Assembly: GCA_029856125.1 (NCBI GenBank)
Contig: JAHQWJ010000062.1
Coordinates: 64,001 to 128,000, forward strand
DNA from: Promethearchaeia archaeon
GTDB taxonomy: Archaea > Asgardarchaeota > Lokiarchaeia > Sigyniarchaeales > SOKP01
Direction of reading: 5' to 3'
Length of the DNA stretch: 64,000 bases
In this document: positions 9,024 to 43,247 of the stretch, one piece after another
Position numbering within the stretch: position 1 is the first letter of the stretch
Layout: the number at the start of each line of letters is the position of its first letter
The notes under the pieces: model-generated
The model's database searches: none
Seen by the model: the letters and a program-made list of their open reading frames with translations, nothing else
Told to the model about the DNA's origin: nothing
Program-made: the position numbers and the translations under genes

Positions 9024-9710
9024 ATGCATAGCGTTGAAAAATTGTTTATTCTTAATAATGAAGTAAAACTGGAAGCTGAAGTTTTTCAGATAGAAAATGA
9101 AACACCTAGTTGCGTTGCATTAATGTGCCATCCACATCCTCAATTTCTTTGGGTTTAAATCCCAAGAAAGGGAAAGTATGGCGGGGACATGTATAATAAC
9201 GTTGTATCGGGTGTTTTCAATTCGTTCGTTAAAAAGGATATATCCTGCATACGCTTCAATTTTAGAGGGGCGGGTAATTCGACAGGGGATCATACAAGCG
9301 GTAAGGGCGAATTAAGCGATGTTAAGGCTTGTGTTGACCATTTAACGCAGAGTTTACATTTTGATAGAGTTTTTATATGCGGGTATTCCTACGGTGCAGC
9401 TATAGGGTGCTCTACTATCAATTATTCCGAAAAAATAATTGGATATTGTGCAATTTCTTTTCCTTGGGACTTTATGAGCGTCCAATATAAAGAGTTATCT
9501 CAATCGAAAAGACCAAAATTGTTCATTCAAGGGGATATGGATACAGTAGCCCCTTATGAAAATTTTATGAAACACTTTAATTATTATTCAGAGCCAAAAA
9601 AATTCAAGATTATAGAAGGGGCAGATCATTTTTATCAAAATTTTGAAGAGGTGATTAGTAGAGAAGTATTGAACTTTTATGATTCCATAGCTCAAAATCC
9701 AATTTCATAA
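9024..9710 (+). CDS. Alpha/beta hydrolase, intron-split (exons 9024-9142 and 9176-9710; 217 aa after splicing)
   Basis: ATG 9024 is open to ...MCHPHPQ, then a 33-nt insert with in-frame TAA, then YGGDMYNNVV...RFNFRGAG.S.G...GYSYG...QGDMD...GADHFY in the same frame. The track reports only the 3' part (9189-9710). Confidence 0.85.
9143..9175 (+). other. Putative bulge-helix-bulge (BHB) mRNA intron, 33 nt
   Basis: Central helix TCCT(9137-40)/GGGA(9170-73). Bulges CA^A (9141-43) and AA^G (9174-76). Intron stem TTTCTT-T-GGG/CCCAAGAAA. Splicing yields CAG (Gln) and restores HPHPQYGGDM. Confidence 0.85.
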
Positions 9711-9736
9711 CATCTCTGATTATATGAAGTGAATAG

Positions 9737-9756
9737 ATTGAATTTTCTAATTCAAT
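9737..9756. terminator. 8-bp inverted repeat between convergent genes (possible terminator)
   Basis: ATTGAATT-ttct-AATTCAAT. AT-only, so the evidence is weak. Confidence 0.25.
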
Positions 9757-9786
9757 AATAATATAGAGCGAAAAGATTCGGTTTAT

Positions 9787-10185
9787 TTAAATTGTAGACA
9801 GTTTTTCCAAATCGGGAGTTGCATTTGAAACGGCCCAATCTAATAATTGATCGTAATAGGATTCAATTTCGTATGATTCGGGACTATTAGATAAAACTGC
9901 TAATATAAATTGCGTTTTTTGATCAGGCATAATAATATTTCTACATACAATATAATCTCCAATATATTTAATCTTCATACTCGATAGAAGAGACAAATTC
10001 ATTTCCTCAGAAGCTTTATATGCCGCATCGCTCAATAAGGAGCTCATGGCTGCAACAACCCGTTCATCAACATCCTCTGCTTTTTGGGAAGCTAAAACTA
10101 ATCCTGTTGAAGTAGAGAACAATGACGCTCTAAAATTTCCATTTTCATTTAATTCTTTAAGTACAAGTTCAAGTCGGCTAACCAC
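9787..10185 (-). CDS. Roadblock/LC7 domain protein
   Basis: LE.VLKEL...ASLFSTSTGLVLAS....DERVVAAMSSLL..A pattern. Confidence 0.8.
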   Translation of the reverse strand: MVSRLELVLKELNENGNFRASLFSTSTGLVLASQKAEDVDERVVAAMSSLLSDAAYKASEEMNLSLLSSMKIKYIGDYIVCRNIIMPDQKTQFILAVLSNSPESYEIESYYDQLLDWAVSNATPDLEKLSTI

Positions 10186-10275
10186 AGTTAATACTCCATT
10201 ATATTCTTTTATACTATTACTAACAAAAAAACCTTATTACAATATATTATGAACTATTTAATATTTAATTTTACT

Positions 10276-10800
10276 TTATCTTAAATTCAGATTTATAAGA
10301 AAAGTCGATAGAATATTATCATTATCGATCTTCAGGGTAATAACGCTTGGTCTCGCAATAGGTTTTTCAAAACCTTTTTTAGGAAGTGGGGCTATAGGTT
10401 TAGTTGGGCTCCCCGGATTGATTAATAACGTATTGTAGGGTGTTCCCTTAATAAGTGGTTGATGGGTATGCCCAAAAATAAGAATATGGATATTATTCTC
10501 CTTAATAAAAACTTCCGTATTCTCAGGTTTCTTGTGTACTATTCCGAGGGTGTATTCACCAACTTCAAAGTTTATAAAAGTCTCTAATCCAGGTATTTTA
10601 TCTGACTCTCCTCGTACGCATCGGACTGGAGCTATGTTTTCCAAATCGTTAAGAAAAAACGGTACACAAACATCTCCAGCATGAATTATTTCATCAACAT
10701 CTTCGAAAGTTTCTTTTAATTGATTCAATAATATATAATATAATTTGTTTTTATCATTAGTTGTAAAATGCGTGTCAGAAATGATTCCAAATTTAGCCAT
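10276..10800 (-). CDS. YfcE/Vps29-like metallophosphoesterase
   Basis: IISDTH, IIHAGD, VRG, GHTHQP and NPGSPT motifs. Confidence 0.85.
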   Translation of the reverse strand: MAKFGIISDTHFTTNDKNKLYYILLNQLKETFEDVDEIIHAGDVCVPFFLNDLENIAPVRCVRGESDKIPGLETFINFEVGEYTLGIVHKKPENTEVFIKENNIHILIFGHTHQPLIKGTPYNTLLINPGSPTKPIAPLPKKGFEKPIARPSVITLKIDNDNILSTFLINLNLR

Positions 10801-10817
10801 TTCTTTTTTAACACTCG

Positions 10818-11894
10818 CTATAAAATTATCATTCCAACCAAAAAAATTATTAAGCCAAATATAAAATCCATCATAATTCTAACAACAGTTTCTAACGAAT
10901 TTTCTCCGATACTTTCATCACGGGTAAAATAACTTGTAAACTCTTTCCAACCGATTGATAAACTCTCTTTAATTCGAGAAAATTGCCAAATAAAAAGTAC
11001 TAATCCTATTATCAATAAAGGAATGTAAATATAAACAGCCATATACGAAAAATCAATGCCGTGTAAATAGTGCCAAATCGTATGAGATGTTATAATGTTG
11101 TTAAAAGTATGGGCAAAAATTACGGGAAATATCCAACGTCTTCTTAAAACGATCATAGAAAGAACAATTCCTACTAAGAAAGTTTGTAAAAACCAAATAA
11201 TCGGATAAATTATTGGCAATCCGGCTGACGACGGGCTAAGTATATAAGCAAAGTGTCCCATACCAAAGAAAAAGGAAGTCATGATCACCGCAGACATTTT
11301 ATTAAAGTAATCACTTCCTCTATTAGTTAAAAAGCCTCTTGTTAATGATTCTTCATAAATCGAAACGCATAGAGGTATTATAATGATTGATATAAGAAAA
11401 ATTGAGTAATTCTCGTTAAAATAGGAATTTAAAGAATATTGTGCTGCGGGTTCTATTGCCGTGGAAGAAAAAGAAAGCATTTCAGGTATAAGATAAATAA
11501 AAAAATCTAATGGTATAAAAATTAAAAAAAGCAATAAAATACCGTATAAGAGCTGAAATTTAAAATTTTTTCTTGTAATTTTAAATAAATTAAGAAAATT
11601 TCTTGAAGGGCTAATGTCTTCATCTAAAATCAATGATTTTCTCTGTTTTTCCATTATAAAATTTGATAGATAAAGGAATATGGGTATAACAACGACCATA
11701 ATAGCAGCTCTCATTATGTTATATAATCGCTCATATGTTGCATCGTCTATAGCATTTACATCAAAAAGGAAAGGTAGTATAAAGGTTGGAATTAACATAA
11801 ATACAAAAATTCCTAAGAATATTATTAACGCTTCAAAAAGAAAATAAAATCTCTGTCTCATAATTGTTTTTAAAGGAGTTCTTGGTCTTCTCAT
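10818..11894 (-). CDS. CPBP (CAAX/Abi) family intramembrane glutamic protease
   Basis: Multiple TM segments; EESLTRG, FGMGH and AHTFNN motifs. Confidence 0.85.
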   Translation of the reverse strand: MRRPRTPLKTIMRQRFYFLFEALIIFLGIFVFMLIPTFILPFLFDVNAIDDATYERLYNIMRAAIMVVVIPIFLYLSNFIMEKQRKSLILDEDISPSRNFLNLFKITRKNFKFQLLYGILLLFLIFIPLDFFIYLIPEMLSFSSTAIEPAAQYSLNSYFNENYSIFLISIIIIPLCVSIYEESLTRGFLTNRGSDYFNKMSAVIMTSFFFGMGHFAYILSPSSAGLPIIYPIIWFLQTFLVGIVLSMIVLRRRWIFPVIFAHTFNNIITSHTIWHYLHGIDFSYMAVYIYIPLLIIGLVLFIWQFSRIKESLSIGWKEFTSYFTRDESIGENSLETVVRIMMDFIFGLIIFLVGMIIL

Positions 11895-11957
11895 GATTTA
11901 CCCAAATAACAAGTGTAATTAATAAAGGATAGTTTAATCGAAATATTATAAATTTTT

Positions 11958-12923
11958 TTATTTGTTGCTATTCCAAAAAAATTTTAGATGATCTCTATTT
12001 GGAATACCATTTCTTGCTCCAATTTTTTGAATACAGTTTCCAGCTAAGTAGTTACCAGTTTTTAAATAGGTTTTAAGGTGTTCAACATCAAAAATCATAC
12101 TTTGAACCAACCCATACATAAAACCAGCAGAAAATGCATCACCTGCCCCGGTAGTATCGATAACATTACTCAATTCAAGAGAAGGTATTAGTCCGTTTCC
12201 TTTTTTAGTAAGGAAAAATGATCCTTTATCACCAAGAGTAACTACAATTACCCGGATACCCAAGGATAATAATATTCTTGAATATTTGATAATAGATTCT
12301 TCATTTAAGTCGCTTTCTTTTATGTTTAAAAGGGTACGATATTCCCTCTGGGAAATAATCAGCACATCAATCTTTCCCAATAACTTCTTTAACTTTGTGA
12401 ACCCTAGATCGACGATTAACATGCCAGGATTTAAAATCACAGGGATATTGATACTTTTACCTATCTCCGCTGCAATTTGCAGCGGTTCAAGGTTTCTCAA
12501 ACTGCTTAAAAAGATTATTTTTGCATTTTTAAGTTCTTTTTCTGATATGTCTTTTTTTGAGAGATAATTAGCAGCACCACTATATGCGTATATTCTTCTT
12601 TCCCCTTTTTGATTTAAAGCCACATATGCAGATCCTGTTTTGTGATCTCGAGAATACTTAATTAATCTTGTATCTACAGAGACTTCTTTAAAATCGTTAA
12701 TTATTTTCTCGCCGAATGTATCTTTTTCCCCTAGTTTACCGATAAACGCCGTCGATAAGCCAATTTTTGCGCAAGCATAAGCAGTATTCGCCGCAGCCCC
12801 ACCAGATAATATTGATAAATCTGATACAAATACTTCGTCATCATCTAAGGGATGCCTTACTACTTGAGCTATTATGTCAACAAGTGCTGCCCCAATACAA
12901 ATTACATCGAAAATATTAACCAT
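11958..12923 (-). CDS. PfkB/ribokinase family carbohydrate kinase
   Basis: GGAAANTA, VTLGDKG and DTTGAGDAF motifs. Confidence 0.9.
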   Translation of the reverse strand: MVNIFDVICIGAALVDIIAQVVRHPLDDDEVFVSDLSILSGGAAANTAYACAKIGLSTAFIGKLGEKDTFGEKIINDFKEVSVDTRLIKYSRDHKTGSAYVALNQKGERRIYAYSGAANYLSKKDISEKELKNAKIIFLSSLRNLEPLQIAAEIGKSINIPVILNPGMLIVDLGFTKLKKLLGKIDVLIISQREYRTLLNIKESDLNEESIIKYSRILLSLGIRVIVVTLGDKGSFFLTKKGNGLIPSLELSNVIDTTGAGDAFSAGFMYGLVQSMIFDVEHLKTYLKTGNYLAGNCIQKIGARNGIPNRDHLKFFWNSNK

Positions 12924-12930
12924 TTCACCC

Positions 12931-14127
12931 CTAAATTATGTCTTTTTGATCATATTTGAAGGAGCCAAATTCAGATTTTATTTCTAGCAAGTTCTGGTGT
13001 TTTGAAGGTGAATTTTGGCAGTATCCAATAATTTTCGAGTCTACATTGTATTTTTTGCTGATTTTGATTATATCTTGAGCTGTAGTTTCATCACAATAAA
13101 TTTCCATCCGATGACCCATATTAAACACTTGAAACATCTCTTTCCATTGAGTTTCCGAAGAACTTTGAATAATTTCAAATATTTTTGGAATTTGAAACAA
13201 ATTGTTTTTGGTGTATTTAATTCCTTTACCGTAATTCAAAATTTTTGTTTGACCTCCTCCCGTGTTGTGGATTATTCCGTGAATTTCTTTCCGATGGGTT
13301 CTTAATATATCTAAAATTATTGGGGCATAAGTTCTAGTTGGAGATAAAAGCGCTTTTCCTATTGTTAGACTCGACCCTTTAATCTTGTCGGAAAGTAAGT
13401 GATTTCCGAAAAATACAAATTGTTCTTCAAGAGATTGGTCATAACACTCAGGATATTTCACGTAATATTCGTGCGATAGAACTCCGTGTCGAGCAAGCGT
13501 TAATCCGTTACTACCGATCCCGCTATTAAATTCTTCTTCATATGTTGCTTTTCCTGAGCTAGCTAAACCGATGATTACATCGTTATTGGAAATTTTGCTT
13601 AAATCGATGACATCTTTTTTCTTCAAACTAGTAAACGCTGATGCGTCGATTATAAGAGTTTTTACGACATCTCCTACATCAGCAGTTTCACCACCACAAA
13701 TTAGAGTATTTAAACCCAAGTCAGACAACTTCTTACTATAGGAATAATATTCTTGGATTATGGTACTAATAATCTCGCCATCAATATACCTGCTATTTCG
13801 ACCGATATTATTCGAAATGAAATAATCTCCTGTCGCCCCAACACAAAGCATATCGTCAATATTCATGACAATTGCGTCTTGTACAATTCCTTTAAAGACG
13901 GATATATCTTCAAGCTCTTTATAATACATATAAGCGAGGCTAGATTTAGTTCCCGCTCCATCGGAATGAAAAACTGAACAATAATCATCCCTTCTCCTCA
14001 CATCTTGAACGATTTTACAAAAAGATCCGGGATATAATCCTTTATCAATATTCTGTATTGCTTTATGGACGTCTTCTTTTTTAGAAGAAACACCTAATTG
14101 AGAATAAATATCTTTATGATCAGACAT
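12931..14127 (-). CDS. purM: Phosphoribosylformylglycinamidine cyclo-ligase (AIR synthase)
   Basis: DGAGTK, MNIDD, GGETADV, GIGSNGLT, LLSPTRTY and VFNMG motifs. Confidence 0.9.
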   Translation of the reverse strand: MSDHKDIYSQLGVSSKKEDVHKAIQNIDKGLYPGSFCKIVQDVRRRDDYCSVFHSDGAGTKSSLAYMYYKELEDISVFKGIVQDAIVMNIDDMLCVGATGDYFISNNIGRNSRYIDGEIISTIIQEYYSYSKKLSDLGLNTLICGGETADVGDVVKTLIIDASAFTSLKKKDVIDLSKISNNDVIIGLASSGKATYEEEFNSGIGSNGLTLARHGVLSHEYYVKYPECYDQSLEEQFVFFGNHLLSDKIKGSSLTIGKALLSPTRTYAPIILDILRTHRKEIHGIIHNTGGGQTKILNYGKGIKYTKNNLFQIPKIFEIIQSSSETQWKEMFQVFNMGHRMEIYCDETTAQDIIKISKKYNVDSKIIGYCQNSPSKHQNLLEIKSEFGSFKYDQKDII

Positions 14128-14129
14128 TT

Positions 14130-15488
14130 TTATAACGCGTATTTATTTTTAAGAACATTTAGAATATTTTCTGTTTGTTCAAGAGCCTTCCCTATGTATT
14201 TGTGAGGATCTAATAAATCATCGATCTCGTTTTTAGAAAGGACTTCTTGAATTTTTTGATTTTTATACAGAATTTCTTTAATTAATATATTTTCTTTTTT
14301 TGCTTTAATAGCTGCCTTCCTTAAAATTTCGTGTCCTTCTTGCCTACCGATACCTTTTTTAACCAGATTAACCATAACTTTTTCGGAAAGACTCGCTCCT
14401 TTAGTAAGATTTAAATTTTCTTCTATTTTAAATTCGTCAAATTCGACCCCTAGGACAATATCAGTTAATTGATTTATCATAAAATCTAAAAGTATGAAAT
14501 TCTCTGAGAAAATTATTCTTTCATTAGCAGAATTCGTTAAATCTCTCTCATCTTCTAAAATTATATTATCTAAAGCGGGAATTACATTAGACTTCAACAA
14601 TCGGGCTAAACTACAAATCCTCTCAGATTTATGAGGGTTTCTTTTGTGGGGCATTGTTGAACTACCAACTTGACTCTTCTTAAAAGGTTCAAACATTTCA
14701 GCTATTTCATTCCTTTGAAGTACTCTAATTTGCCTTGAAAACTTAGCAAGAGATTGCCCTATCAATGTTGTTATAAAAATCACCTCAGCGTGACGATCTC
14801 TTTGAATTATTTGGTTTGCTATTAATGCCGGATGTAAATCAAGCTCTTTCGTTACTATATTTTGTATTTCAATACCTTTCTCTCCAAAGCTTGCCATCGT
14901 TCCCACTGCCCCAGACATTTTACCGAACGCGATCCGATTAAGCGTTTCTTTTAATCTATCTATATGTCTATCTATTTCATATGCCCATACACCAAATCTC
15001 ATCCCATATGTTGTAGGAATAGCATGCTGTCCGTGAGTTCTTCCTATACAAACGAGGTTTTTCTTATCATCAATTACTTTGATTAAGGCTATAATTAGTT
15101 TCTTTAAAGATTTTATAATATGCGAGATCGCTTCTTTTAATTGAAGTGCTGTTGCTGTGTCTTCAATATCATAACTAGTTGCTCCTAAATGTGTATATTT
15201 TCCGGCGTCTCCCTCACATTGTTCAGATAAAGCTTTAACCATAGCCATTAAATCATGATGTATTTCTCTATCTATTTCTTTTACACGATTTAATTTTACA
15301 TAATCTAAATTAGCTTTTTTAGATATCTCATCTGCTGCTTCTTGAGGAATGTTCCCTAGTTTAGCGTGAGCTTTAGCTAATACAGCTTCAACTTTTAACC
15401 AGTTGGCTAATTTTTTATCTTCTGTAAAAATGTCGGCTATTTCAGTTCGGTAACGGGTTTCAACGGGATTGATAAATTTATGATCCAT
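14130..15488 (-). CDS. purB: Adenylosuccinate lyase
   Basis: HLGATSYDI, GRTHGQHA.PTT and GSSTMPHKRNP motifs. Confidence 0.95.
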   Translation of the reverse strand: MDHKFINPVETRYRTEIADIFTEDKKLANWLKVEAVLAKAHAKLGNIPQEAADEISKKANLDYVKLNRVKEIDREIHHDLMAMVKALSEQCEGDAGKYTHLGATSYDIEDTATALQLKEAISHIIKSLKKLIIALIKVIDDKKNLVCIGRTHGQHAIPTTYGMRFGVWAYEIDRHIDRLKETLNRIAFGKMSGAVGTMASFGEKGIEIQNIVTKELDLHPALIANQIIQRDRHAEVIFITTLIGQSLAKFSRQIRVLQRNEIAEMFEPFKKSQVGSSTMPHKRNPHKSERICSLARLLKSNVIPALDNIILEDERDLTNSANERIIFSENFILLDFMINQLTDIVLGVEFDEFKIEENLNLTKGASLSEKVMVNLVKKGIGRQEGHEILRKAAIKAKKENILIKEILYKNQKIQEVLSKNEIDDLLDPHKYIGKALEQTENILNVLKNKYAL

Positions 15489-15635
15489 AGCTACTTAACT
15501 CTTTTATAATCTCTATAATTGAAATAATCTATGATCAATTATTATTCTTTTTTTAAATTGTTATTAAAAAGCAAATATTCCAGTAAAAATATCCCAATGG
15601 CTCTATTGTAGAAAGAGAAGTATTAAAAATAGATT

Positions 15636-16364
15636 TTAATTCTGATGACCTGTGCGCCTAGCGGCGATTTGACCAACCTTTCGACCTGGAGGAGCATTTC
15701 TAGAAGTTGTTGTTGGTTTATGAGGTGACTGCTTTGCGCCCCCGCCATAAGGATGACTTGCGGCATTCATAGTAACTCCTCGTACGACCGGCCATTTTTT
15801 TGCTTTAGAGCGGTAAGCGTGGTGTGCGTTTCCTGCTTTCAGAAAAGGTTTATCTATTCTACCTCCACCTGCAACTACTCCTACGGTGCAAAGGCAATTT
15901 TCATTAAACCATTTTGTTTTTTTTGACCGAAATAGTACTTCAATATTTTTTCCAGATTTGTTTCGAACGATAGCAGAAACTCCGGATGCTCTTGCGAATT
16001 TACCTCCATCTTGTGGAGTACCTTCGATGTTAAATACAAGCGTTCCTATTGGCATTTTTTTAATTGGTAGGATATTTCCGACTGATACTTCTTGCCCGTA
16101 TCCCGTTTTTGATTGGAAAAATTCTTGTCCTTCATATATTCCTTCTGGAGGTAACCATAAACTTTTTTCCCCATCTTCGTACCTAATTCTAGCTACTGGG
16201 GCTCCTCTACCTGGAGCGTGGAGGAAATCAATCACTTTAAATTTTAACAATTTTTCATTTTTCTTGAAGGGACGATATTTTACCTTTCCTACATGTCGAT
16301 GACTTGGAGATCGAGCCCATAAATGGCCGTATCCTTTTCTTTGAGCTAATATACGCTTTCCCAT
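15636..16364 (-). CDS. rpl2: 50S ribosomal protein uL2
   Basis: MGKRILAQRKG, PGRGAP, GGKFARASG, WP.VRGV.MNA..HP.GGG and PPGRKVG.IAARRTG motifs. Confidence 0.97.
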   Translation of the reverse strand: MGKRILAQRKGYGHLWARSPSHRHVGKVKYRPFKKNEKLLKFKVIDFLHAPGRGAPVARIRYEDGEKSLWLPPEGIYEGQEFFQSKTGYGQEVSVGNILPIKKMPIGTLVFNIEGTPQDGGKFARASGVSAIVRNKSGKNIEVLFRSKKTKWFNENCLCTVGVVAGGGRIDKPFLKAGNAHHAYRSKAKKWPVVRGVTMNAASHPYGGGAKQSPHKPTTTSRNAPPGRKVGQIAARRTGHQN

Positions 16365-16460
16365 AAAGATCACTTACTATATCGAATTAGTAATATCTAA
16401 TTAATAAAAGTTTAAATTTTTTATTATTTTGCATAGCAATTATAGATTTGTGAGAAAAAA

Positions 16461-17831
16461 TTATTGTTTTTTTACAAAGGTTTTACTCTTTAATAGTCTA
16501 TCAATGTTGTAATTAAAAGCGATTGGTAGTTCCCGATCTATAAACTCTCCAGCGATATTTGTTAATAGTAGATTTTTAATTTCATTTGGATCTTGTGTTT
16601 GGCCAAGAACCCAACCAAGTTTAACGTAACCGACTTCTGGTAAAATATTCTTTCCAGGAATAACACCAAGATTTTGTAATTCTCTACCAGTGGAATATAC
16701 ATCCATTCCAACGAACCCATGTAAGGTTTGAGTGGTCATTAATATAGTAATTCCTTCTTGGATTGCTCTTTTAATAGATTCATAAATATATGTGCTAGTG
16801 TGACCAAGTCCTGTCCCTGCAAATACTATCCCTTTATAGCCATTATCGATATAAAAATCAATTAATTCACTTTCCATGCCAGGGTAAGAGTAGACTAATG
16901 CGATCTTCTTCTCAAATTTTGTCTTTAATATAATTTCTCGATTTGATCTCTTCTTATAATCTGAACTAAACATCTTAATTTTTCTGTTTTTGATCATGCC
17001 TAATGGAACTTGATCAATAGTACGGAATGCCTCTCTTACTGATGAATGCATTTTTCTGACGAGTGTACCCCTATGGATTAACCCATAATCATGTGAAGAG
17101 GATCCTAACATTGTGACCAAAACTTCCGAAATATCTGAACTTGCTACAACAGCAGCGTTGATCAAATTAAGAGCGGCATCAGAGGATGGTCGATCAGAGC
17201 TTCTTTGACTTCCTGTAATCACTACAGGAATAGACAAATTCTCAAGCATGAAAGCTAAAGCAGCACTTGTAAAGCTCATTGTGTCGGTTCCGTGTCCTAT
17301 TAATATTCCGTCGATTCCAGCATCTGCTGCGCTTTTAACCTTTTCTGCTAGTTCTTGCCAATATTCTGGTTTCATGTTTTCCGATAAAATCTCAAAAGCA
17401 GTCTCACATTCAAGGTTACATATCTCTGCTAGTTCTGGGACAGAACTAAACAATTCTCCAGGAGTGAAAGAGGGGATAACCGCACCGGTAGTATAATCTA
17501 GCCTTGATGCCACTGTTCCTCCTGTACCCAGAAGTTTGATGTTTGGTAAATTTTTATTTTTTGGGAATTTTTTTTCTGGAATTTTATAGATTGCCTCTTT
17601 TTTACCAGTTTTTTTAATCTCTATTACATCGTTTAAATTAATACCTAAATTATAATTGTTTTTTAACTTAATTTCAATAAAATTAGGAGCAGAATACTCA
17701 TTTCTAGGTAAAATTATCCCTTGTAAAGTGGTTTTTTTTGTTTTTAATTCGACGACATCCCAAATTTGAATATTATTCTTTTCTAGGTATTCTCTTGCTT
17801 TTTCTTTGTATCCTTTTAACGAATCACTCAT
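16461..17831 (-). CDS. gatD: Glu-tRNA(Gln) amidotransferase subunit D
   Basis: TGGTVASRLDY.TG, HGTDTM, GSQRSSDRPSSD and RKMHSS.R motifs. Confidence 0.95.
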   Translation of the reverse strand: MSDSLKGYKEKAREYLEKNNIQIWDVVELKTKKTTLQGIILPRNEYSAPNFIEIKLKNNYNLGINLNDVIEIKKTGKKEAIYKIPEKKFPKNKNLPNIKLLGTGGTVASRLDYTTGAVIPSFTPGELFSSVPELAEICNLECETAFEILSENMKPEYWQELAEKVKSAADAGIDGILIGHGTDTMSFTSAALAFMLENLSIPVVITGSQRSSDRPSSDAALNLINAAVVASSDISEVLVTMLGSSSHDYGLIHRGTLVRKMHSSVREAFRTIDQVPLGMIKNRKIKMFSSDYKKRSNREIILKTKFEKKIALVYSYPGMESELIDFYIDNGYKGIVFAGTGLGHTSTYIYESIKRAIQEGITILMTTQTLHGFVGMDVYSTGRELQNLGVIPGKNILPEVGYVKLGWVLGQTQDPNEIKNLLLTNIAGEFIDRELPIAFNYNIDRLLKSKTFVKKQ

Positions 17832-19751: not shown

Positions 19752-19939
19752 ATTAGATCATTTGAGATTTATATCGTTCTACTATGAACTGTTTAATTCA
19801 TTTTATAATTTTAATATATTGTATGGAAAATCTAAAATTTAGTTCATTTAGATAGGAAATTAGACTTATTTTTATTGTCCTTATATTTCCGATAAATTGC
19901 ATATTTGCTATAGTAAGACTTAAGTTCAAGAGGGTTGTG

Positions 19940-23432: not shown

Positions 23433-23502
23433 TACTATTATTATGTAAGAAATGATTATTATTATTATTTGAGAAATTTTACTAAAGCAAGTGTATAGGA
23501 TA

Positions 23503-27988: not shown

Positions 27989-29230
27989 ATGTTGAAAATT
28001 ACACAAGCGAATTTTTTACCGATCGAAAAAAGTGAATTTCCGGAAATATGCGAGCGGAAAGGCGTGGGGCACCCCGATAGTGTGTGTGACGCAGTAGCCG
28101 ATGCGTGCTCGAGAGCACTTTGTGTGTACTATTTAGAAAATTACGAAAGGGTTTATCATCATAATGTTGATAAAGCAGCATTAGTTGGAGGGACTGCTAA
28201 ACCAGAATTTGGTGGAGGCTTAATAATTCAACCACAATATTTTTTAATAGTGGGAAGAGCAATAAATCAAATCCTCACTAAGTGTGGAACTGAAAGTAAA
28301 TTAGAGTACATACCAGTTGCGACTATTTGTATTGACACCCAAAGAAAAGTTCTTGCTGAAATTTTTAGAAATCTTGACCTTAATAGAGACATTCAATTCG
28401 ATTATGCCGTCCGACCTGGATCTATAGACTTAACTGGAGTTTTTGATGACTCCCACCACACAGACGACATACCACTTTCAAATGATACGAGCTTTGGAGT
28501 GGGTTATGCACCCTATTCAGATGTAGAAAAGATAACGTTAGAAGCTGAATATTTACTCAACTCAGATAAATTCAAAAATACATGTAAAGCTTCGGGAGAA
28601 GACATTAAAGTTATGACGGAAAGACTCGGTAATAAAGTAGGAATTACTGTAGCAGCTGCTATGGTTAGCAAATACATCAATGACACCGATGAATATATTA
28701 GTTACACAAATCAAATTAAAGACGCTGTTTTAGACTTGGCGGCTAAAATCATCCCCGAACGCGAAGTCACTTGCCAAGTAAATGTGGGAGATAATGTCGA
28801 AAAAGGAATTCTTTATCTTACAATAACTGGAACTTCAGCTGAAGCTGGAGATGATGGTGAAGTAGGAAGAGGTAATCGATCGAATGGATTAATTACTCCT
28901 TGTAGACCGATGAGTTTGGAAGCAGTGTGTGGAAAAAACCCGATAAACCATGTAGGTAAGCTGTATAACATTCTAGGCACAGAATTGAGTAGAGAAATCT
29001 ATAAAAGAGGAGAAGGGGATATTTTGGAAGCACATGTAAAATTACTTTCCCAGATTGGACGCCCTATTACTGATCCGTGGGTGAATTCGATAGAACTGAT
29101 CCCTGCTGAAAATGTGAACTTTGCGAGCATTAATAAGATAGCTCAAGAAGTTTCTGAAGAGATGTTAAGCAAGGAGTATTTTATTGACTTACGGAAGCGT
29201 TTGATTGAAGGAAAAGTTCAAGTGTATTAA
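27989..29230 (+). CDS. mat: Archaeal-type S-adenosylmethionine synthetase
   Basis: [39 protein letters not shown] and [12 protein letters not shown] motifs. Confidence 0.95.
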
Positions 29231-29617: not shown

Positions 29618-29620
29618 ATA

Positions 29621-32078: not shown

Positions 32079-32179
32079 TTATTTATGATATTGTTATAAC
32101 TCAAATCCGAAAAAAATATCAACGAATAAACGCTATTTTTTTTATCATTATTGATTTATCTATTAATTGAGTTTTATTA

Positions 32180-32839: not shown

Positions 32840-32927
32840 TTAATAGAGATTGATAATAGATTGGTTAATTATTAAAAAAAAGTATAATAATAAAACAAAA
32901 AATATTTTTTATTGAAGGTGTTGAAAT

Positions 32928-33347: not shown

Positions 33348-33365
33348 GTAAATCTTTTTTTTTAC

Positions 33366-35512: not shown

Positions 35513-35525
35513 TCCGCTTTAATAT

Positions 35526-36560
35526 TTAATCACTTTCAAAATGATCCTTAAACGTGTCATATTCTTTTTTTCTTTTTCTTTTTCTTTCTCTAATTAATTC
35601 TATTGGGTCTACACTGGAATCATCGAGAGAAACATGATGTTCATCTGATCTTTTATCCATTTGTTTTTTAAACATCTCAATTTTTTGAGAGATTTCTTCT
35701 GTTATTTCAAGTGTTTTCTCGTTTTCCGTATCACTAATGTCAGTCAATTTTTCACGCTTCTGTTTTCGCAATATTCTTTTAAATTCTTTATTTGATAATT
35801 TTAAATAACTATCATAAGATTCTGTTTGCTCTTCTTGTTGTTTTTTTAATTCTTCAATTTCTTGTCTTTTTATGTTTTTTACCAAGAGTTCTTTCTTCGA
35901 TTTTAATTCTTCTTCAGATAGTTTATGTTCAAGCGATTGAGTGAATTTAATATAAGTTATCTCGGGTGTAATATGAAACTGTTTTTTAAAATCTTCGATT
36001 ATGAAAGGTTCTACATTACGGGGTATTTTAGCCAGTTCCTTTTTTAATTTGTTCTGTAAATTTATTTTATAGTGTTCTCTCAGATTGTCAACAGATTTTA
36101 GAAAAAGGGTGTTCTGATTTAAGGAATCTATTAAATCAAGCCATTGTTTAACGCTAACAGAAGGAATGTGGGTAATTCTTTCAATTATTTTACTAATTTT
36201 TTTATTTTCAATAAAAGATAGGCCAATCTGTGTAAGAGAGTCATTGTCCAAATCAATGATTTTCAGTTTATCGTTAATTGATTTCTTGTATTTATTAATC
36301 AAATAGCTTTTTAACTTTAAAAATTTGTTAATGTTGTGCTTTGAGACAGTCTTTAAATTTTCGTTGATTCTCTCTACTAATTTAGTTAATTGTGTGAAAT
36401 CTTTTAAAAATAAATCGTTTCCGTCGTAAAATGAAGCTATCTGGTGCTCAGATTCTAAATTTTTTACTATATTTGATACTTGGTTGACCTTTCCTTGTAA
36501 ATTTTTAATGGGAGCGGTTAACTCCTTTATCTTTTCAAGGTTAAATAGTTCTGTTTCCAT
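35526..36560 (-). CDS. Hypothetical helical/coiled-coil protein
   Basis: 344-aa ORF with a charged C-terminal coil; in operon. Confidence 0.7.
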   Translation of the reverse strand: METELFNLEKIKELTAPIKNLQGKVNQVSNIVKNLESEHQIASFYDGNDLFLKDFTQLTKLVERINENLKTVSKHNINKFLKLKSYLINKYKKSINDKLKIIDLDNDSLTQIGLSFIENKKISKIIERITHIPSVSVKQWLDLIDSLNQNTLFLKSVDNLREHYKINLQNKLKKELAKIPRNVEPFIIEDFKKQFHITPEITYIKFTQSLEHKLSEEELKSKKELLVKNIKRQEIEELKKQQEEQTESYDSYLKLSNKEFKRILRKQKREKLTDISDTENEKTLEITEEISQKIEMFKKQMDKRSDEHHVSLDDSSVDPIELIRERKRKRKKEYDTFKDHFESD

Positions 36561-36607
36561 TTTATCAATTAAATTAAATTTTTTATTTAGTAATTAAAAA
36601 AAATATA

Positions 36608-37717
36608 TTATATCTCTGGAGGTCCTTTCATATTGCGTTTTTCCTGCTTAGTTCTCGAAGAGTTTAAAAAAAATTTCTTTGAATCGCTTAAATTATCTTG
36701 TCTTTCAACATGCATAGCGGTCCCTCCCACTAATTTTAGAGAATTGTAAAATAAATCGTAAGTTAAACGTTCTGTGTTAATAGCTTTTAAGAGTGAAACT
36801 TTTGTTCCTCTTTCAATATCTGAGCCTGAAAATCCTATTGTAAGCTCTAACAATCCCTTGTTTTTATTATTTTTATTGATTTCATCCCAAAGTAGAGTAT
36901 CACTAAATTCGGAAATTTCAAATCCTAGTTTATGCGTAAGATTACTATGTATCTTTTTAATCATCTCGTATTCTTCTGTTAAATTTGAATAAATTGAGTC
37001 ATCAACACCAATTTTCGCAATTTTAACTTTAGCGAGGAAGGATTCTATTATTTTTCTTCTCAGATGATAATCTGGGAATTCAAAACTAAAGTGAAATGTA
37101 AACCGCCTCCAAATTGCTGAATCTAATTGATTTTGATGATTTGTCGCCCCAAATATTGCTAAGGGTACTCCTTCATAATTTATTCTATCAATTACTTGTA
37201 AAAATGAAATAACGGCTCGTTTGATCTCACCTACTTCATGAATGTTTGACCTTTCGGAGCCTATAGAATCTATTTCATCAAAGAATAGGATAAAATTACC
37301 TCGTTCCTTTGCTATTTCTGCCGCAAGATCCACAACATTCCTAATTTGTTTTATAGTATCTCCTAACAAAGGAGAAACTAACCTATCAGTTTCTACTACG
37401 CATAAGGGAATATCATAATGTTTTGCAAACCCTCTTGTAAGAGAGGTTTTACCTGTTCCTGGAGGGCCATACAAGAGAACAGTCAAACTAGGGTTGAGTT
37501 TTGCTCCCTTTAATCGTTTACTAAATTCATAGTATTTCTTCAAAGCTTTAAAGAAGTCGTGTAAAATTTCTTTTTTATTCTCATTACCTAGAATATCATC
37601 GATTGATTCTTGTATTGTGGAAGGAAAATACACCGCGCCATATTTGCCTAACCTATTTTTAATGACATCTTCGGTAAAAGTTATCTCCTTGTCTCCATCT
37701 TCTTTAGAATTACTCAT
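36608..37717 (-). CDS. AAA+ ATPase (single classical AAA domain)
   Basis: LLYGPPGTGKT, FFDEIDSIG..R, ATN....LDSAIWRRF and GFSGSDI motifs. Confidence 0.9.
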   Translation of the reverse strand: MSNSKEDGDKEITFTEDVIKNRLGKYGAVYFPSTIQESIDDILGNENKKEILHDFFKALKKYYEFSKRLKGAKLNPSLTVLLYGPPGTGKTSLTRGFAKHYDIPLCVVETDRLVSPLLGDTIKQIRNVVDLAAEIAKERGNFILFFDEIDSIGSERSNIHEVGEIKRAVISFLQVIDRINYEGVPLAIFGATNHQNQLDSAIWRRFTFHFSFEFPDYHLRRKIIESFLAKVKIAKIGVDDSIYSNLTEEYEMIKKIHSNLTHKLGFEISEFSDTLLWDEINKNNKNKGLLELTIGFSGSDIERGTKVSLLKAINTERLTYDLFYNSLKLVGGTAMHVERQDNLSDSKKFFLNSSRTKQEKRNMKGPPEI

Positions 37718-37742
37718 TTTTCTCATCTCTTTTTATTCTAAT

Positions 37743-39050
37743 TTAGTTATTTTTTCTTTCTTTATCAAACTTTTTACAAAATTCTGCTATTTCTAAGATA
37801 AAATCTTTAAGGTTATCGATTTGAGACCCAATAAAGTTAAAAATTTCTTTTCTGTATTGCGGAGAATCCCGTATTTTCATTTTATCAATACCTAGATAGT
37901 TGGGAAAACAGAGAAGCTTCATCAAATAAGGTAAAATCTTCTCATTTGTTTGTAAATCCTTAAAGATAGGATAGAAAATGTTTTGGTCTGACAATTTCCA
38001 CTTCAATATACCCATATAAATCAAAAAAGCAAAATTCATTGAAATCCAATTTATTAATTCCCTCGATAAAAAACCTCTTCTCTGGGAAGAGAAAGCTAAA
38101 TAATAGAGAAACAAGCTTTCATTGCTTAGTTGAGGTATTAATCGTACTTTTCCATCAGATTGTGAATTTTTTCGGAAAAAATTATTTTCTGTTAGTAAAT
38201 CTACTAAGTCCTCGCTTGGAACAATAAAAATTCCGTCTATTATTCGCAATCCAAATCGTTCAGAAATTTTCTCGATAGCCTCTTCTTCTGCATTTGCTAT
38301 AGAATCAATATATGGTTCGAATACTTCAGATTTTAATATCATAGGCAGTTCTTGATTTTCTCTTTCAGGGAATTCTCCGAAATTTGGATCCAAATTAAAG
38401 AGTGATGTTATATTATTAATGATATTATAAACTTTAGGGGAAATTCCCGGAATTTCAAATAAATCAGAGGATTCTAATTTTTCTCGGTAATAAGTATGTG
38501 GTTGGAGCATATGTCTTTGACAATCGTACAAATCTGAAGAATAACCTAATAATTTACTATAGATAATGCTTAAATTTCTACCTCTCGGGAGGAGCCGTTC
38601 TTCAATGAACTTAACTAAAACATATAAAATGGTGTTTTCTAAATTTGTTTCGTCTGGATTTGTGATGTGTAACAAAACATTCAGAGCCCCGACTGATTCG
38701 TATAAGAATTCAATAATATAATCTTTAATATCAAGAATAGGTATTTGATTCCGATATTTAACTAAGAAATCTTTAATAATTTCATATATATTTGACCTGT
38801 ACATTGCGGAAAATTCTGATAAAGCTCTCACTTTTCTAAAATTTCGTTTTTCTTCTTCTTCTCGGATTTTATCTAGAATTTCTGTATCTAAAAGAAGGTC
38901 CGCATCCAAATCAATTATTATTCTTCTCGTTTCTCTTAGTATTGGACGCATATGAGTTAAAAACGTAAGGTACCTCGGTAAGATATCGGTCCACTTCTCC
39001 CTTTTTCTCCCAGGTCTAACATTCCTTGTCGTTTTTTTTTTATAACTCAT
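37743..39050 (-). CDS. Hypothetical protein
   Basis: About 435-aa ORF in operon, with a basic N-terminus. Confidence 0.75.
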   Translation of the reverse strand: MSYKKKTTRNVRPGRKREKWTDILPRYLTFLTHMRPILRETRRIIIDLDADLLLDTEILDKIREEEEKRNFRKVRALSEFSAMYRSNIYEIIKDFLVKYRNQIPILDIKDYIIEFLYESVGALNVLLHITNPDETNLENTILYVLVKFIEERLLPRGRNLSIIYSKLLGYSSDLYDCQRHMLQPHTYYREKLESSDLFEIPGISPKVYNIINNITSLFNLDPNFGEFPERENQELPMILKSEVFEPYIDSIANAEEEAIEKISERFGLRIIDGIFIVPSEDLVDLLTENNFFRKNSQSDGKVRLIPQLSNESLFLYYLAFSSQRRGFLSRELINWISMNFAFLIYMGILKWKLSDQNIFYPIFKDLQTNEKILPYLMKLLCFPNYLGIDKMKIRDSPQYRKEIFNFIGSQIDNLKDFILEIAEFCKKFDKERKNN

Positions 39051-39076
39051 AATTCTCACTCATTTTATCATTGTTA

Positions 39077-40216
39077 TTAACTTTCGTCGTAACCCACTAA
39101 GATTTCTGTGAAAATATTCGAAATTTCTACGAAAATTGGTATTTCTACTCTTACAAGTTGACCAAGGACCCATTTATTAACATCTTTAATCAAAAATCGT
39201 ATTTGATTATGGATTTTTTTATTTATATCTGAATCAATTATTTTAGACAACCATAGCCCGCCCCCTAATCTGTAAGCAATGATTTTAATTAAAGGTTCGA
39301 ACAACGGTTCTAAAACTTGTCTCATCATCCAAGATTTAGGAATTACACTCATAGTATCTGCATTGTAATTAGGATCGTTAAGGATGGGGTTTGTTTCATC
39401 TACAGATAATTTAGGTAAAAAACTTAACAGCAGTATTAATGCAAAAATGGCCGAAATACCGTTCAATGTATAAGATCCACCAATCTTATCTAAATCATCC
39501 CTATTAGTGGCCACATTCGCTAAGAACATACATATAAATACGTTTCTATCAAATGCTTCAGAAACGTACGTATATCCTAATTTTTCGTCTAGTATCAAAT
39601 ATTTCTCTTCAAGTATTTTAATAATCTTTTCCGGAAAAGTGTAAAAAGTGAATATTTTTTCTTCACTTTTTCTAACATCTTTTTCTATAATTAATTCTTT
39701 TGACACGAGACCAAATAATTTAACCAACTCTTCAAGTTGACTTTTAATATAATGTCGAGGTTTATTTGGGTCGCCAAACATCGCATAAAATTGATAATCA
39801 ACGATATGAAAGTCATTTCTTTTACTAAAAGCTTCAACCATTCTATCAATTACAGGTCCTTGAGTTCCCGTAGCAACAGCTTTAGCTTTTGATGCCACGA
39901 ATCCGTTTAACAGCTCGTTTATGATGAAATCCTGTTCGTGAGTACGAGATTTTATTATCTTTTGAAATGCTTCAGAAAAATCGTTTGTGTTAGGGAAAAA
40001 CGCGTTTTGAATTTTATCGTCAATGGATTTTAAGAAAATTTCACCATTATTTTTAGGAAAATGAAGCCTCATATTCTTTAACCTTTGTTTTAAAGCTTCT
40101 TTTGCACCAGGTATGTTTTCCACGTCTCGTTTTTCGAGCTCATCAATAGCCTTCTCTAAGCCCATCTCAAAGTCTTGAAGCAGTTCGTGCCAAGTGCTTT
40201 CTTGATTTCTTTCCAT
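39077..40216 (-). CDS. Hypothetical protein
   Basis: About 379-aa ORF. AGGTG SD precedes the ATG. Confidence 0.75.
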   Translation of the reverse strand: MERNQESTWHELLQDFEMGLEKAIDELEKRDVENIPGAKEALKQRLKNMRLHFPKNNGEIFLKSIDDKIQNAFFPNTNDFSEAFQKIIKSRTHEQDFIINELLNGFVASKAKAVATGTQGPVIDRMVEAFSKRNDFHIVDYQFYAMFGDPNKPRHYIKSQLEELVKLFGLVSKELIIEKDVRKSEEKIFTFYTFPEKIIKILEEKYLILDEKLGYTYVSEAFDRNVFICMFLANVATNRDDLDKIGGSYTLNGISAIFALILLLSFLPKLSVDETNPILNDPNYNADTMSVIPKSWMMRQVLEPLFEPLIKIIAYRLGGGLWLSKIIDSDINKKIHNQIRFLIKDVNKWVLGQLVRVEIPIFVEISNIFTEILVGYDES

Positions 40217-40250
40217 TTTGTTCACCTTAATGGTATGGTTTTTTTCAGTT

Positions 40251-41207
40251 TCACCAATTTAACTCTTGTTTTATTCTCTTTAATGCATTGATTAATGGCG
40301 TTACAAGTTTTTTATCATAGATATTAGGAGACGCTACCCCCCTTTGGGCTTTCCAGCCCATTTGGATTCCTTCACCTATTTCTCTCTGTCCGTACTTTAA
40401 TAGACTGCTTAAGTCTCGCATCCACCAATAAAATCTTAGCCATCGCTTATTAGGATTATCTTTAGCGTGAATAACTGCTAGTGCTTTCCACTCCCCCATT
40501 AACCATTTCACAGTTATACCGCTTACTGGCAGGTAATAATTGATTGGGAAATTAGTTTGAAAACGTAAATCCAACTCTGAAGATTGTATGTTAAAAATTG
40601 GTTGATTATACCCTTCCAGTATAACTATTTCACCACAATGTTGGCATTCGTAATGAGATTTCTTTTTTGACATTTTTTTTTGACATTTTGGGCAAGTTCG
40701 ATGTTCTAAAATTCTAAATTTGATTAAATCTAAGTATTTTTCCTTCTCTAGAGCATCTTTGGTTTTAGGTTCCTGCTTTACATATTTTCCGCCCCAAGTC
40801 CAAATATCGTCAAAATTATTATTAATTTTTTCTAATGTGACTATAAGGTTATTTAATACCTGTTTTTCATAGATTTTAAACATGCCAGCATGCTGAAAAC
40901 TTTTCCACCATGAGAGTCTCACGTATTTTTCGTCTTTTAAATAAGCACTATGACAGATTAACGCAGCAAACAAACGAGTTTCAGTTTTGCTTATTATAAT
41001 ACCTTGTTCGCACACTTCGTATTTTTTATTTATACTTGCAGTATTATGAAAATATTCTCCTTCTAGAAATTCTCCTTTTTCTACCTTTTTTATATCTTCA
41101 AGTTCAGCTTTTTCGTCTTTTTGCTTTACAATTTTTCGACATTGAGGGCATTGGTAAATTCCAGAAACCAAAGGCTCCATTTCGATGTTACACGCTGAAC
41201 ACTTCAA
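40251..41207 (-). CDS. Hypothetical protein with two zinc ribbons, each followed by a repeated beta-rich domain
   Basis: CSAC..CPQC and CPKC..CQHC. Repeats YVRLSWWK...KIYEK and WLRFYWWM...NIYDK. Confidence 0.7.
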   Translation of the reverse strand: MKCSACNIEMEPLVSGIYQCPQCRKIVKQKDEKAELEDIKKVEKGEFLEGEYFHNTASINKKYEVCEQGIIISKTETRLFAALICHSAYLKDEKYVRLSWWKSFQHAGMFKIYEKQVLNNLIVTLEKINNNFDDIWTWGGKYVKQEPKTKDALEKEKYLDLIKFRILEHRTCPKCQKKMSKKKSHYECQHCGEIVILEGYNQPIFNIQSSELDLRFQTNFPINYYLPVSGITVKWLMGEWKALAVIHAKDNPNKRWLRFYWWMRDLSSLLKYGQREIGEGIQMGWKAQRGVASPNIYDKKLVTPLINALKRIKQELNW

Positions 41208-41209
41208 AT

Positions 41210-42310
41210 TTAATCATCACTTCTTGTAATTAAATACCGTTCATAATCTAAATTTAATAATTTTAATTCTTTCTTCGTTAATACTTCAAGTTCTTTATTA
41301 ATTTTTATTAAATCCTCTCTAAATTTAAGTAGAACATTTTGAATTTTATTTACTATGTTATCTTCGTTAAATGAAACTTTTTCAATAAATTCAAGATAAC
41401 TAAACTTTTTATCTTTTCCAGAATAATATTTTTTGGTTTCTAATATTTTCTCGTCGAGTTGTTCCATCCTAAACCTAGCGTTCAGTATTGTCATCACTCT
41501 GAAATGCCAATCGTTACCAATTTCATTCCTTTCTGTATCTTCATCAAAGTTGAACTTCTCAGGAAGTTCAATTTTTTCATCCCTCAGATATTTAAAGACA
41601 TCTTTCTCACCCTTAATCGCTTCAAAAATTTTTTTTAACACGGGTTTACTCCTTAATTTTGGTTCAAAGATATCTATATACTCGTTAATTTTTTCTTTTA
41701 TATCTAAATATTTCTGGTGAACCCCTTCAATTGTGATCTCAATTTTAATTGCCTGATAAACATTGCCAAATTGATCTAATATGTAGTATACATCATCGGA
41801 TATTGTGTAATCGTTTTCTCCAATTTGAGATATAAATGGATGAATATGGTTACTATTCTGACATTTTACTCCTTTTAATTTAATCAAAGCTAAATTATAA
41901 TTTCTTCTGGTAAGAAACTTAAATTTTTTATTTATCATTAAGAAAAGAGTATGGTCTGGGACCGATATTTTGTCGTTCTCGATGGTAATTGTTTCTTCTC
42001 CTAATCGTATTATAAAATCCCCATCTTTATGATTAAATTCTCTAATACTACGAATATTTTTAAACAAGCCTAAATCGATCGCTATATCGATAAAATTTTC
42101 TTCCCACAAGTTAAGTACGTTATTTTTAAATATTTCGTCTAAGATAATGACTTTCTCATAGGATTCTATAATTTTTGAATCCTTTAAGTCTTTAAACAAG
42201 TCATTTCTGATAATATATAAAAACATAATAATGTATCTCATATTAAGATCGTCCAAAACCCTTTCTATCAAGCTCTTATCATATTCTAGTGACAAATTCG
42301 TATGTTCCAT
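41210..42310 (-). CDS. Hypothetical protein with C-terminal coiled coil
   Basis: 366-aa ORF, first gene of the minus-strand operon. Confidence 0.75.
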   Translation of the reverse strand: MEHTNLSLEYDKSLIERVLDDLNMRYIIMFLYIIRNDLFKDLKDSKIIESYEKVIILDEIFKNNVLNLWEENFIDIAIDLGLFKNIRSIREFNHKDGDFIIRLGEETITIENDKISVPDHTLFLMINKKFKFLTRRNYNLALIKLKGVKCQNSNHIHPFISQIGENDYTISDDVYYILDQFGNVYQAIKIEITIEGVHQKYLDIKEKINEYIDIFEPKLRSKPVLKKIFEAIKGEKDVFKYLRDEKIELPEKFNFDEDTERNEIGNDWHFRVMTILNARFRMEQLDEKILETKKYYSGKDKKFSYLEFIEKVSFNEDNIVNKIQNVLLKFREDLIKINKELEVLTKKELKLLNLDYERYLITRSDD

Positions 42311-42635
42311 GCCTAAAATCCACTCATTTTTTTTTAACTACTAAGACAATTCAGTGAAAAAGAGTAATTGAGATAAGGTATCATTCCTAAAAAATTTTCC
42401 GTTTTATACTAAAAATCGGCTCTAAATTGTTTCTAAAATTCTTAGAACTCTTTTTTCTTCTAAATAAAAAGGTTTATTACAATAATATAGAAAATAAGTT
42501 AACTAACCGAAAAATAAATTTCAACGATATTAATCCGAATAAAAAACTCATTAAAACAAAAGTATAAATTATTGTAACAAAACTTTTTTGTTATGTTTTT
42601 CTTATTTAGTATATACAATAATTAGTGTTTGAATA

Positions 42636-43247
42636 ATGGGAAGAAGGAAACGTAAACAACAATCATATAAAAGAGTTAAGCGAGTTCCAAAGATTTTCAC
42701 GTGCCCAAATAACTAAATGGATACCCCATTTAATATGGATTGCGGTGAAAAATCTGTCAAGGTTAAGAATATTCGGAAAAGCTTAATTGCCACAGTGAAG
42801 TGTGGTCATTGTGGCTTAACAAAGGATGTTTTAATTAATTCTATATCAGAACCGGTTGATGCCTTTGGAGATTTTATCGATATTCATTACGCTGATCAGG
42901 AACTTCAGAGACTAGAAAAACGCATAGAGAAACTTAAAAAGAAAAATGAATGGGGGGAATTAGTTCTAGTTTATTCTATTTTATCGGATATTTGCAAAGC
43001 TAAAGCTGCAGAGGCCTTAGAAGATGAAGATAATGTCAACCTTGATGTAGTTAATAAATGGAAAATTAGAGCGGAAGAATATAAAAGGTTAGGAAAGGAT
43101 GCATTACTTCAACTAGACTCTCTTGAGTTAGAGAAAGGAATTAAAACAGATGACGAGTCTTTGTTTACAGAGCACGACGAGAGTGACATGAAGAGGGAAA
43201 AAAAAATCGAAGATATTTTTGACGATCCAGGCTTTCTTGAATTCTAA
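42636..43247 (+). CDS. elf1: Transcription elongation factor Elf1 with helical/acidic C-terminal extension, intron-split (exons 42636-42710 and 42741-43247; 193 aa after splicing)
   Basis: MGRRKRK...VPKIFTCPN|CGEKSV....A.VKCGHCGL......EPVD.FGDFID is the Elf1 signature. A 30-nt insert with in-frame TAA splits the first CxxC. Confidence 0.88.
42711..42740 (+). other. Putative BHB mRNA intron, 30 nt
   Basis: Central helix CCAA(42705-08)/ATGG(42735-38) with one A-A mismatch. Bulges AT^A (42709-11) and AT^T (42739-41). Intron stem TAAATGG/CCATTTA. Long exon-exon stem AGATTTTCAC-G-TGC/GCG-GTGAAAAATCT. Confidence 0.8.

Follow-up and report, generated by a model that had tools for sequence, protein, structure and literature searches.

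How are genes of an archaeon expressed whose reading frames are broken by a short insert with an in-frame stop codon? Two such genes, coding for an alpha/beta hydrolase and for Elf1, are located in the window analyzed here, a stretch of 64,000 nt (G000:C63:64001-128000) from a metagenome-assembled genome (MAG, here named G000) of 3.69 Mb with 32.7% GC content. The original prediction had described both inserts as introns with bulge-helix-bulge (BHB) motifs of the tRNA type in an Asgard-like host. The host assignment was borne out, since the genome is a Promethearchaeota (Lokiarchaeia) MAG whose nearest named relatives, MAGs of Promethearchaeota as well, are 82-96% identical in Elf1. We consider both inserts, with a probability of about 90%, to be genuine archaeal BHB introns in pre-mRNA, which would be cut by the splicing endonuclease EndA and joined by the RNA ligase RtcB with archease. 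Judging from the comparison with related genomes, the mRNAs of the intron-bearing genes are very likely spliced. The GTDB family and genus of the host are referred to as f1 and g1, respectively.

The interrupted hydrolase and Elf1 genes

The hydrolase gene is located on the forward strand. Its exon 1 (9024..9142) starts with the ATG at 9024, comprises 39 codons and 2 nt and ends with HPHP-CA. It is followed by the insert of 33 nt (9143..9175) and by exon 2 (9176..9710), which is called alone as an ORF of 173 amino acids (aa) from the ATG at 9189. The insert separates HPHPQ from YGGDM by eleven extra codons, among them a TAA (9156-9158), and forms a 9-bp hairpin with one bulged U. All four pairs of the central helix are present between UCCU of the exon (9137-9140) and GGGA of the intron (9170-9173), including one U-G pair, and the two bulges read CA^A (9141-9143) and AA^G (9174-9176). 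With 6/6 of the first intron pairs and 4/5 of the exon pairs formed, the motif is canonical. Excising 9143-9175 gives an open frame of 217 aa.

Among 30 orthologous loci 19 carried an insert at the identical base, with lengths of 30, 31 or 33 nt, and in the remaining 11 its absence was exact. The central helix was invariant and complete in all 19 intron-bearing loci (100% of its cells paired; 88.4% overall). The stop codon was kept in all 12 distinct 33-nt introns although it changed: TAA in seven, TGA in four and a TGA elsewhere in one. The ratio of nonsynonymous to synonymous substitution rates (dN/dS, here and below from pooled, non-independent pairs) was 0.34 for exon 1 of intron-bearing and 0.31 for that of intron-free genomes (14 codons), and 0.16 for exon 2.

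In Elf1, likewise on the forward strand, exon 1 (42636..42710; ATG at 42636) consists of 25 codons, covers positions 1-27 of the profile PF05129 and ends in FTCPN, at the first Cys of the first CxxC. The insert of 30 nt (42711..42740) splits this first zinc knuckle between FTCPN and CGEK and adds ten codons with a TAA at 42714-42716; 8/9 pairs of its hairpin are formed. Exon 2 (42741..43247) covers profile positions 27-76 and is miscalled in databases as a protein of 176 aa starting from the intronic ATG at 42717. The bulges are AU^A (42709-42711) and AU^U (42739-42741). The central helix, however, is relaxed: CCAA of the exon (42705-42708) faces AUGG of the intron (42735-42738) with one A.A mismatch, so that only three of four pairs are formed. 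The positions, stop codons, hairpins and motif-restoring junctions of the original prediction could thus be reproduced for both genes, whereas its uninterrupted 4-bp helix does not hold for Elf1 in this genome. Without 42711-42740 the frame is open over 193 aa, the length that uninterrupted orthologues have as well.

Elf1 inserts of 28, 30, 31 and 32 nt were read directly at one and the same site in the genera g1, g12 and g13; four matches starting at profile position 26-27 (G043, G228, G263 and G303) were left out of this reading. The 28- and 32-nt alleles have a perfect CCAA/UUGG helix. In general the intron strand tracks the exon strand, the combinations being CCAA with AUGG or UUGG, CCGA with ACGG, CCAC with GAGG and CCGG with CCUG. 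In the ungapped alignment 79.8% of the cells were paired compared to 26-44% when the partners were slid, and the covariation was reached by none of 500 shuffles, a control that relatedness can inflate. In the hydrolase and Elf1 introns together, the flanking helices were paired in 87-89% (intron stem) and 71-78% (exon stem) of cells. The dN/dS of Elf1 exon 1 was 0.06, and where the intron shifts the frame the two exons gave 0.04 and 0.06. The comparison of orthologues proposed earlier therefore yielded precise presence or absence and compensatory changes for both introns.

The lowered Elf1 score which marks the break was essentially confined to f1 in a set of 301 Asgard genomes. Intron-bearing alleles have been deposited as proteins of 170-176 aa whose start lies in the intron, frequently under the name "hypothetical protein", and the truncated 176-aa form is present hundreds of times in public protein databases. 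Low Elf1 scores in G097, G190 and G319 were examined as introns as well and rejected, since these genomes have tandem zinc-ribbon repeats instead: two or three such domains are located in a single Elf1 frame of 261 aa (L313-L316 in G097 and G190; G319:C64:11530-12057). Additionally, the Elf1 of the window (42741-43247) continues C-terminally for about 110 aa past the zinc ribbon, and open frames of Elf1 span 193-212 aa in the order of the host compared to about 80-110 aa in other Asgard classes.

Constrained to the BHB motif, both introns fold only 0.1-1.2 kcal/mol above the minimum-energy structure. Among the equivalent cuts allowed by homology, the cut with the best BHB restores HPHPQYGG and CPNCG, respectively. 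The pair probabilities of the Elf1 helix were 0.75-0.82, and a long exon-exon stem is formed.

Probable introns elsewhere in the genome, the genus and the family

A census which makes no use of the motif compared G000 with 2.27 of approximately 3.8 Mb (~60%) of the sister genome G017 and covered 1211 genes of G000. It found six clean disrupting inserts, all of 30-33 nt. Besides the hydrolase (33 nt) and Elf1 (30 nt) of the window these were located in UvrA (contig C149, 31 nt), CobO (C118, 30 nt), a histone (C82, 30 nt) and UPPS (C32, 30 nt), the latter being the sole UPPS match in the genome. Two inserts of 29 nt, in the P-loop of aIF2-gamma (C136) and in a second histone (C138), were verified in addition. 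G000 therefore contains at least eight such introns, in line with the expectation that more of them are hidden in this genome, and scaling from 6 per 1211 genes suggests a total of approximately 10-20 mRNA introns. That insert lengths are multiples of three, as noted at first, is true for the two inserts of the window, but lengths of 28, 29, 31 and 32 nt occur among orthologous inserts and this feature is not general.

G017 had been picked as an intron-free control, yet it carries introns of its own. In the reverse comparison of about 1293 G017 genes six other clean disrupting inserts were found, all with complete central helices (4/4). Five of the genes were named from a motif in the aligned stretch: the EF-1alpha P-loop (33 nt), a probable oxidoreductase subunit (30 nt), an MFS-type transporter (33 nt), a low-molecular-weight phosphatase/ArsC (21 nt) and mevalonate kinase (31 nt). 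The sixth, with a 30-nt BHB intron, codes for a longin/winged-helix protein next to rtcB and is the orthologue of 52947-53546 in the window, just upstream of rtcB. Of the 12 census inserts of both genomes 10 had a 4/4 helix at the motif-restoring cut.

For aIF2-gamma there is one full-length match per genome, and its P-loop was broken in 12 genomes of g1. UPPS was broken in 12 loci, where the helix varied from ACGG/CCGU (4/4) to ACGG/ACGG (2/4), the hairpin covaried and 88.1% of the cells were paired; in G011 the helix is complete. The histone helix showed a joint change of exon and intron (GAGA/UCUU versus GCGC/GUGC).

For the P-loop we searched 400 Asgard genomes for an interrupted GHxDHGK-[ST]-T pattern, with the reversed pattern as a control. 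In total, 45 inserts of 29-33 nt were found in translation GTPases of 40 f1 genomes and none with the reversed pattern. Inspection of the matches by eye gave a 4/4 helix for 38 inserts and a 3/4 helix for 7. Exon ACGG faces CCGU or CUGU each time (4 of 4), while exon AUGG faces NNAU or CCAC. Outside f1, the Asgard genome G130 carried BHB inserts of 30 and 43 nt in two neighbouring GTPase P-loops (C27:26071-26129 and 28823-28894), which have the helix CGGC/GCCG and are located one base downstream of the f1 site. One of the 45 f1 inserts is displaced by one base downstream as well and has its own perfect helix; together with the two of G130 this points to independent gains. No P-loop insert was present in the 14 searched genomes of family f2, and pattern matches in G069, G080, G091 and G132 turned out to be chance matches in intact P-loops.

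P-loop introns at this same base also occur in a third translation GTPase (GHIDHGKTT) besides aIF2-gamma and EF-1alpha, for example in G201:C188, G076:C272, G163:C539 and G087:C151. P-loop introns of several different paralogues start alike (TGA.TTAG), which hints at transfer between paralogues. In G001 (C94:172-1408) aIF2-gamma is split near profile position 40-43 and not at the P-loop site, where another intron or a frameshift error is possible. An unconfirmed 31-nt BHB candidate of G000 (C116, position 4339, forward strand) with a 4/4 helix would link a frame of 176 codons to one of 126, with weak homology support.

The distribution of the introns is patchy. In a concatenated tree, which is unrooted and weak in places, intron-free genomes were nested among intron-bearing ones: G011 lacks the introns of the hydrolase and Elf1, G007 that of aIF2-gamma and G004 that of Elf1. 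Intron-free Elf1 alleles exist at 94-98% DNA identity to intron-bearing ones, and one histone site carries unrelated inserts in G000 and G020. Based on these observations, precise loss as well as repeated gain or transfer would seem to be ongoing. When seven introns of G000 were compared among themselves and with the rest of the genome, nothing significant matched (best E 0.05). A mobile family comparable to miniature inverted-repeat transposable elements was consequently dismissed, as the introns share no common sequence.

Nearly all sites lie inside catalytic or binding motifs and GGAA precedes the cut at 5 of 14 sites, both of which are post hoc observations and partly an effect of detection. 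The neighbourhoods examined, with about 1000 gene copies, contained no further intron site; the sites are thus few and specific. All ten introns with a length divisible by three have an in-frame stop, and no stop-free BHB insert of 28-33 nt turned up in a clean context. That every such intron has a stop suggests that proteins whose active site contains an insertion are selected against.

Predicted splicing enzymes, proposed mechanism and alternative explanations

The genome codes for two EndA paralogues. The protein of contig C135 is closest to EndA of Aeropyrum pernix (3p1z, E 1.7e-33). In the alignment it matches the Tyr/His/Lys triad of this enzyme as well as the Lys/Arg (K44/R46) of the Crenarchaea-specific loop, which permits relaxed substrates (PMC3241643). 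The paralogue of C56 lacks the His, as expected of a structural subunit. RtcB, presumably the exon ligase, is encoded in the window itself (53704..55176, forward strand; PF01139, E 4.5e-170) by an uninterrupted gene which is the single match in the genome. It is convergent with the gene of its cofactor archease (55289..55798, reverse strand; PF01951, E 2.9e-41). Judged by sequence, the genome encodes the enzymes that BHB introns call for, namely an EndA with triad and specificity loop, RtcB and archease. The rtcB-archease pair is located approximately 10 kb from the Elf1 intron; this proximity to introns may be chance.

The tRNA genes of the host have BHB introns of the same size class, with 9 of 14 measuring 27-35 nt in a rough scan in which ARAGORN scores were not parsed. 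About 13 tRNA genes of G000 are resolved only with BHB introns removed, and ARAGORN alone misses or misnames several of them (Asn, Asp, Trp).

In the proposed mechanism the ends of exon 1 and of the intron would pair as the central helix, which the intron hairpin closes on one side and the exon-exon stem on the other. An (alpha-beta)2 EndA with the relaxed-motif loop would cut each 3-nt bulge behind its second base. RtcB and archease would then ligate the exons, while the intron is probably circularised. An unspliced mRNA would give a short truncated dead-end peptide by way of the stop or a frameshift. The introns would be part of a population of 21-33 nt in f1 that is repeatedly gained at, and precisely lost from, conserved motifs.

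Several observations weigh against this interpretation. Shapes resembling a BHB often arise by chance, and the helix-plus-stem test is passed by 0.68% of random cuts. A strict structure-only scan of the genome gave no excess over mirror geometry (2870 versus 2913 matches), and neither did a scan combining BHB, ORF merging and coding score (977 versus 996), which became useful only after homology across the junction was added. The pair probability of the hydrolase helix is only 0.22-0.58, with the value of 0.22 obtained with longer flanks where other folds compete. In G000 the helix is relaxed in Elf1 and comprises only 2/4 pairs in UPPS, and the introns of CobO and one histone have no exon stem adjacent to the bulge. 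Furthermore, the census favours cases that are conserved and in frame, and spliced transcripts sought via near-identical intron-free copies were not found, all traced copies being on apparently genomic contigs. What does exceed chance are homology-defined cut sites which carry a BHB, as 9 of 11 clean gene-disrupting inserts passed the test, compared to 4 of 40 indels that were clean and in frame (Fisher P = 1e-5).

Other explanations have to account for interrupted genes that remain under selection. Lengths vary and include those not divisible by three (Elf1 28, 31 and 32, hydrolase 31, aIF2-gamma 29), while dN/dS of the exons stays at 0.04-0.34, like in intron-free orthologues. Essential functions are affected, considering the single full-length match of aIF2-gamma, broken in its P-loop, and the single match of UPPS. 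Pseudogenes or assembly errors could be suspected in a MAG with 6% contamination. This is the least probable alternative, as many independent assemblies and hundreds of proteins in databases show the same inserts and both exons are under purifying selection; an assembly artefact, which the original prediction had named as a possible refutation, is excluded by this recurrence. It is also very improbable that the cutting by EndA mainly destroys or holds the mRNA, or that low-level read-through or frameshifting supplies the protein with little ligation. Yeast TSEN does cleave mRNAs for decay without ligation (PMC10485636), but for aIF2-gamma, Elf1 and UPPS the matches include no second, intact copy, so that full-length protein must come from the interrupted genes. 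Moreover, no single recoding event fits stops that differ (TAA, TGA, TAG) and three length classes modulo 3 at one site.

Split genes would need no splicing: translation would end within the insert and resume from an internal start codon, giving two peptides or an N-terminally shortened protein. The TAA of Elf1 is directly followed by an ATG, several Elf1 inserts contain an in-frame ATG or GTG, the hydrolase has an ATG four codons past the junction and databases call the 176-aa Elf1 product. We nevertheless regard this as hardly credible: the break parts the two Cys of one knuckle and the halves of a P-loop, the 28-nt allele (L037) and the g13 allele (L310) have no in-frame start before the second Cys, and neither the compensatory pairing of exon and intron nor the fixed 3-nt bulges would be predicted. 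Programmed translational bypassing, in which the ribosome hops over a hairpin between matching take-off and landing codons, is found in T4 gene 60 and the byps elements of yeast mitochondria. A size of 28-33 nt, the hairpin and the early stop resemble such elements, and UPPS comes closest with an 8-nt direct repeat at the insert ends and a matching codon pair in 9 of 12 inserts. However, a matching pair is missing from 19/19 hydrolase, 25/27 Elf1 and 5/5 aIF2-gamma inserts and most junctions are inside a codon, which leaves bypassing with a very small probability. Self-splicing introns of group I or II were rejected as well, because their catalytic RNA core takes up hundreds of bases, compared to single hairpins of 30 and 33 nt here (without a search of Rfam).

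Going beyond BHB introns as such, splicing of mRNA by EndA and RtcB could be a routine, regulated layer of expression in f1. Introns in aIF2-gamma, EF-1alpha, Elf1 and histones would then tie the output of translation, transcription and chromatin to splicing capacity, and introns in turnover would enter conserved motifs and spread between paralogues and species. As a whole we consider this rather doubtful. Its first part, routine splicing, is likely; the regulatory part is speculative, and neutral persistence is just as compatible with the gene sets that differ between genomes.

Relation to known splicing systems

With at least 10 introns per genome in core genes of Asgard archaea, pre-mRNA splicing would be an ordinary step there. 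An intron-exon gene structure could then arise and persist without a spliceosome or nucleus, in the lineage nearest to eukaryotes. This raises the question how an unspliced mRNA is dealt with when transcription and translation are coupled. Since close relatives differ by one precisely placed intron, gain and loss would be directly testable. Loki proteomes are misannotated in practice, as the deposits of the truncated Elf1 illustrate, and broken markers such as aIF2-gamma and EF-1alpha affect phylogenomics and metabolic inference.

In eukaryotes, the mRNAs of XBP1 and HAC1 are spliced by a protein-only cut of IRE1 and RtcB ligation, with a short intron that controls the frame. The cut by protein only and the ligation by RtcB are shared with the system proposed here, whereas nuclease and signal, two stem-loops cut in their loops, are different. 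Nothing tested implies homology of the IRE1 cutting step to splicing in Loki.

Within the archaea a close parallel is the pre-mRNA intron of cbf5 in Crenarchaeota (Desulfurococcales and Sulfolobales; Yokobori et al. 2009, PMC2738675). It is also short, located in coding sequence, often of relaxed BHB type, tied to an (alpha-beta)2 EndA and patchy in gain and loss. While it concerns one gene, two genomes from a single genus contributed at least 14 different genes or sites here, and the sets differ between them and include translation factors and histones. The splicing of cbf5 has been demonstrated by experiment, that of the Loki genes is deduced from sequence. In the papers searched, cbf5 is the sole archaeal gene with confirmed splicing within its coding sequence, and reviews up to 2023 name this intron and one in a 5' untranslated region. 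In G000 cbf5 itself is uninterrupted (TIGR00425 match 4-319 of 322, no stop). Other archaeal mRNA introns had been predicted but were unconfirmed (Yokobori et al. 2009, PMC2738675). In Haloferax volcanii, HVO_1309 carries a 46-nt intron (Schwarz et al. 2020, PMC7714728), a BHB cut by EndA in an mRNA like those proposed here, although it is a single case in the 5' untranslated region and involves an alpha2 enzyme.

Non-canonical introns of Asgard tRNA genes, described with a focus on Jordarchaeia and Atabeyarchaeia (PMC11291895; bioRxiv 10.64898/2026.10.13.758758), share motif, repeated gains, (alpha-beta)2 EndA and size class with the Loki mRNA introns. These studies deal with tRNA genes only, f1 is not their focus, and "mRNA" does not occur in the text of the preprint. 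The literature searched, with subscription journals mostly outside its coverage, contained no description of BHB introns within coding sequences of Asgard archaea, the Asgard intron papers being on tRNA or group II introns. A review from 2023 counted two archaeal genes with mRNA introns and expected more (PMC10485636). Compared with all these systems the chemistry is known, while the scale, the targets, the lineage and the turnover are new.

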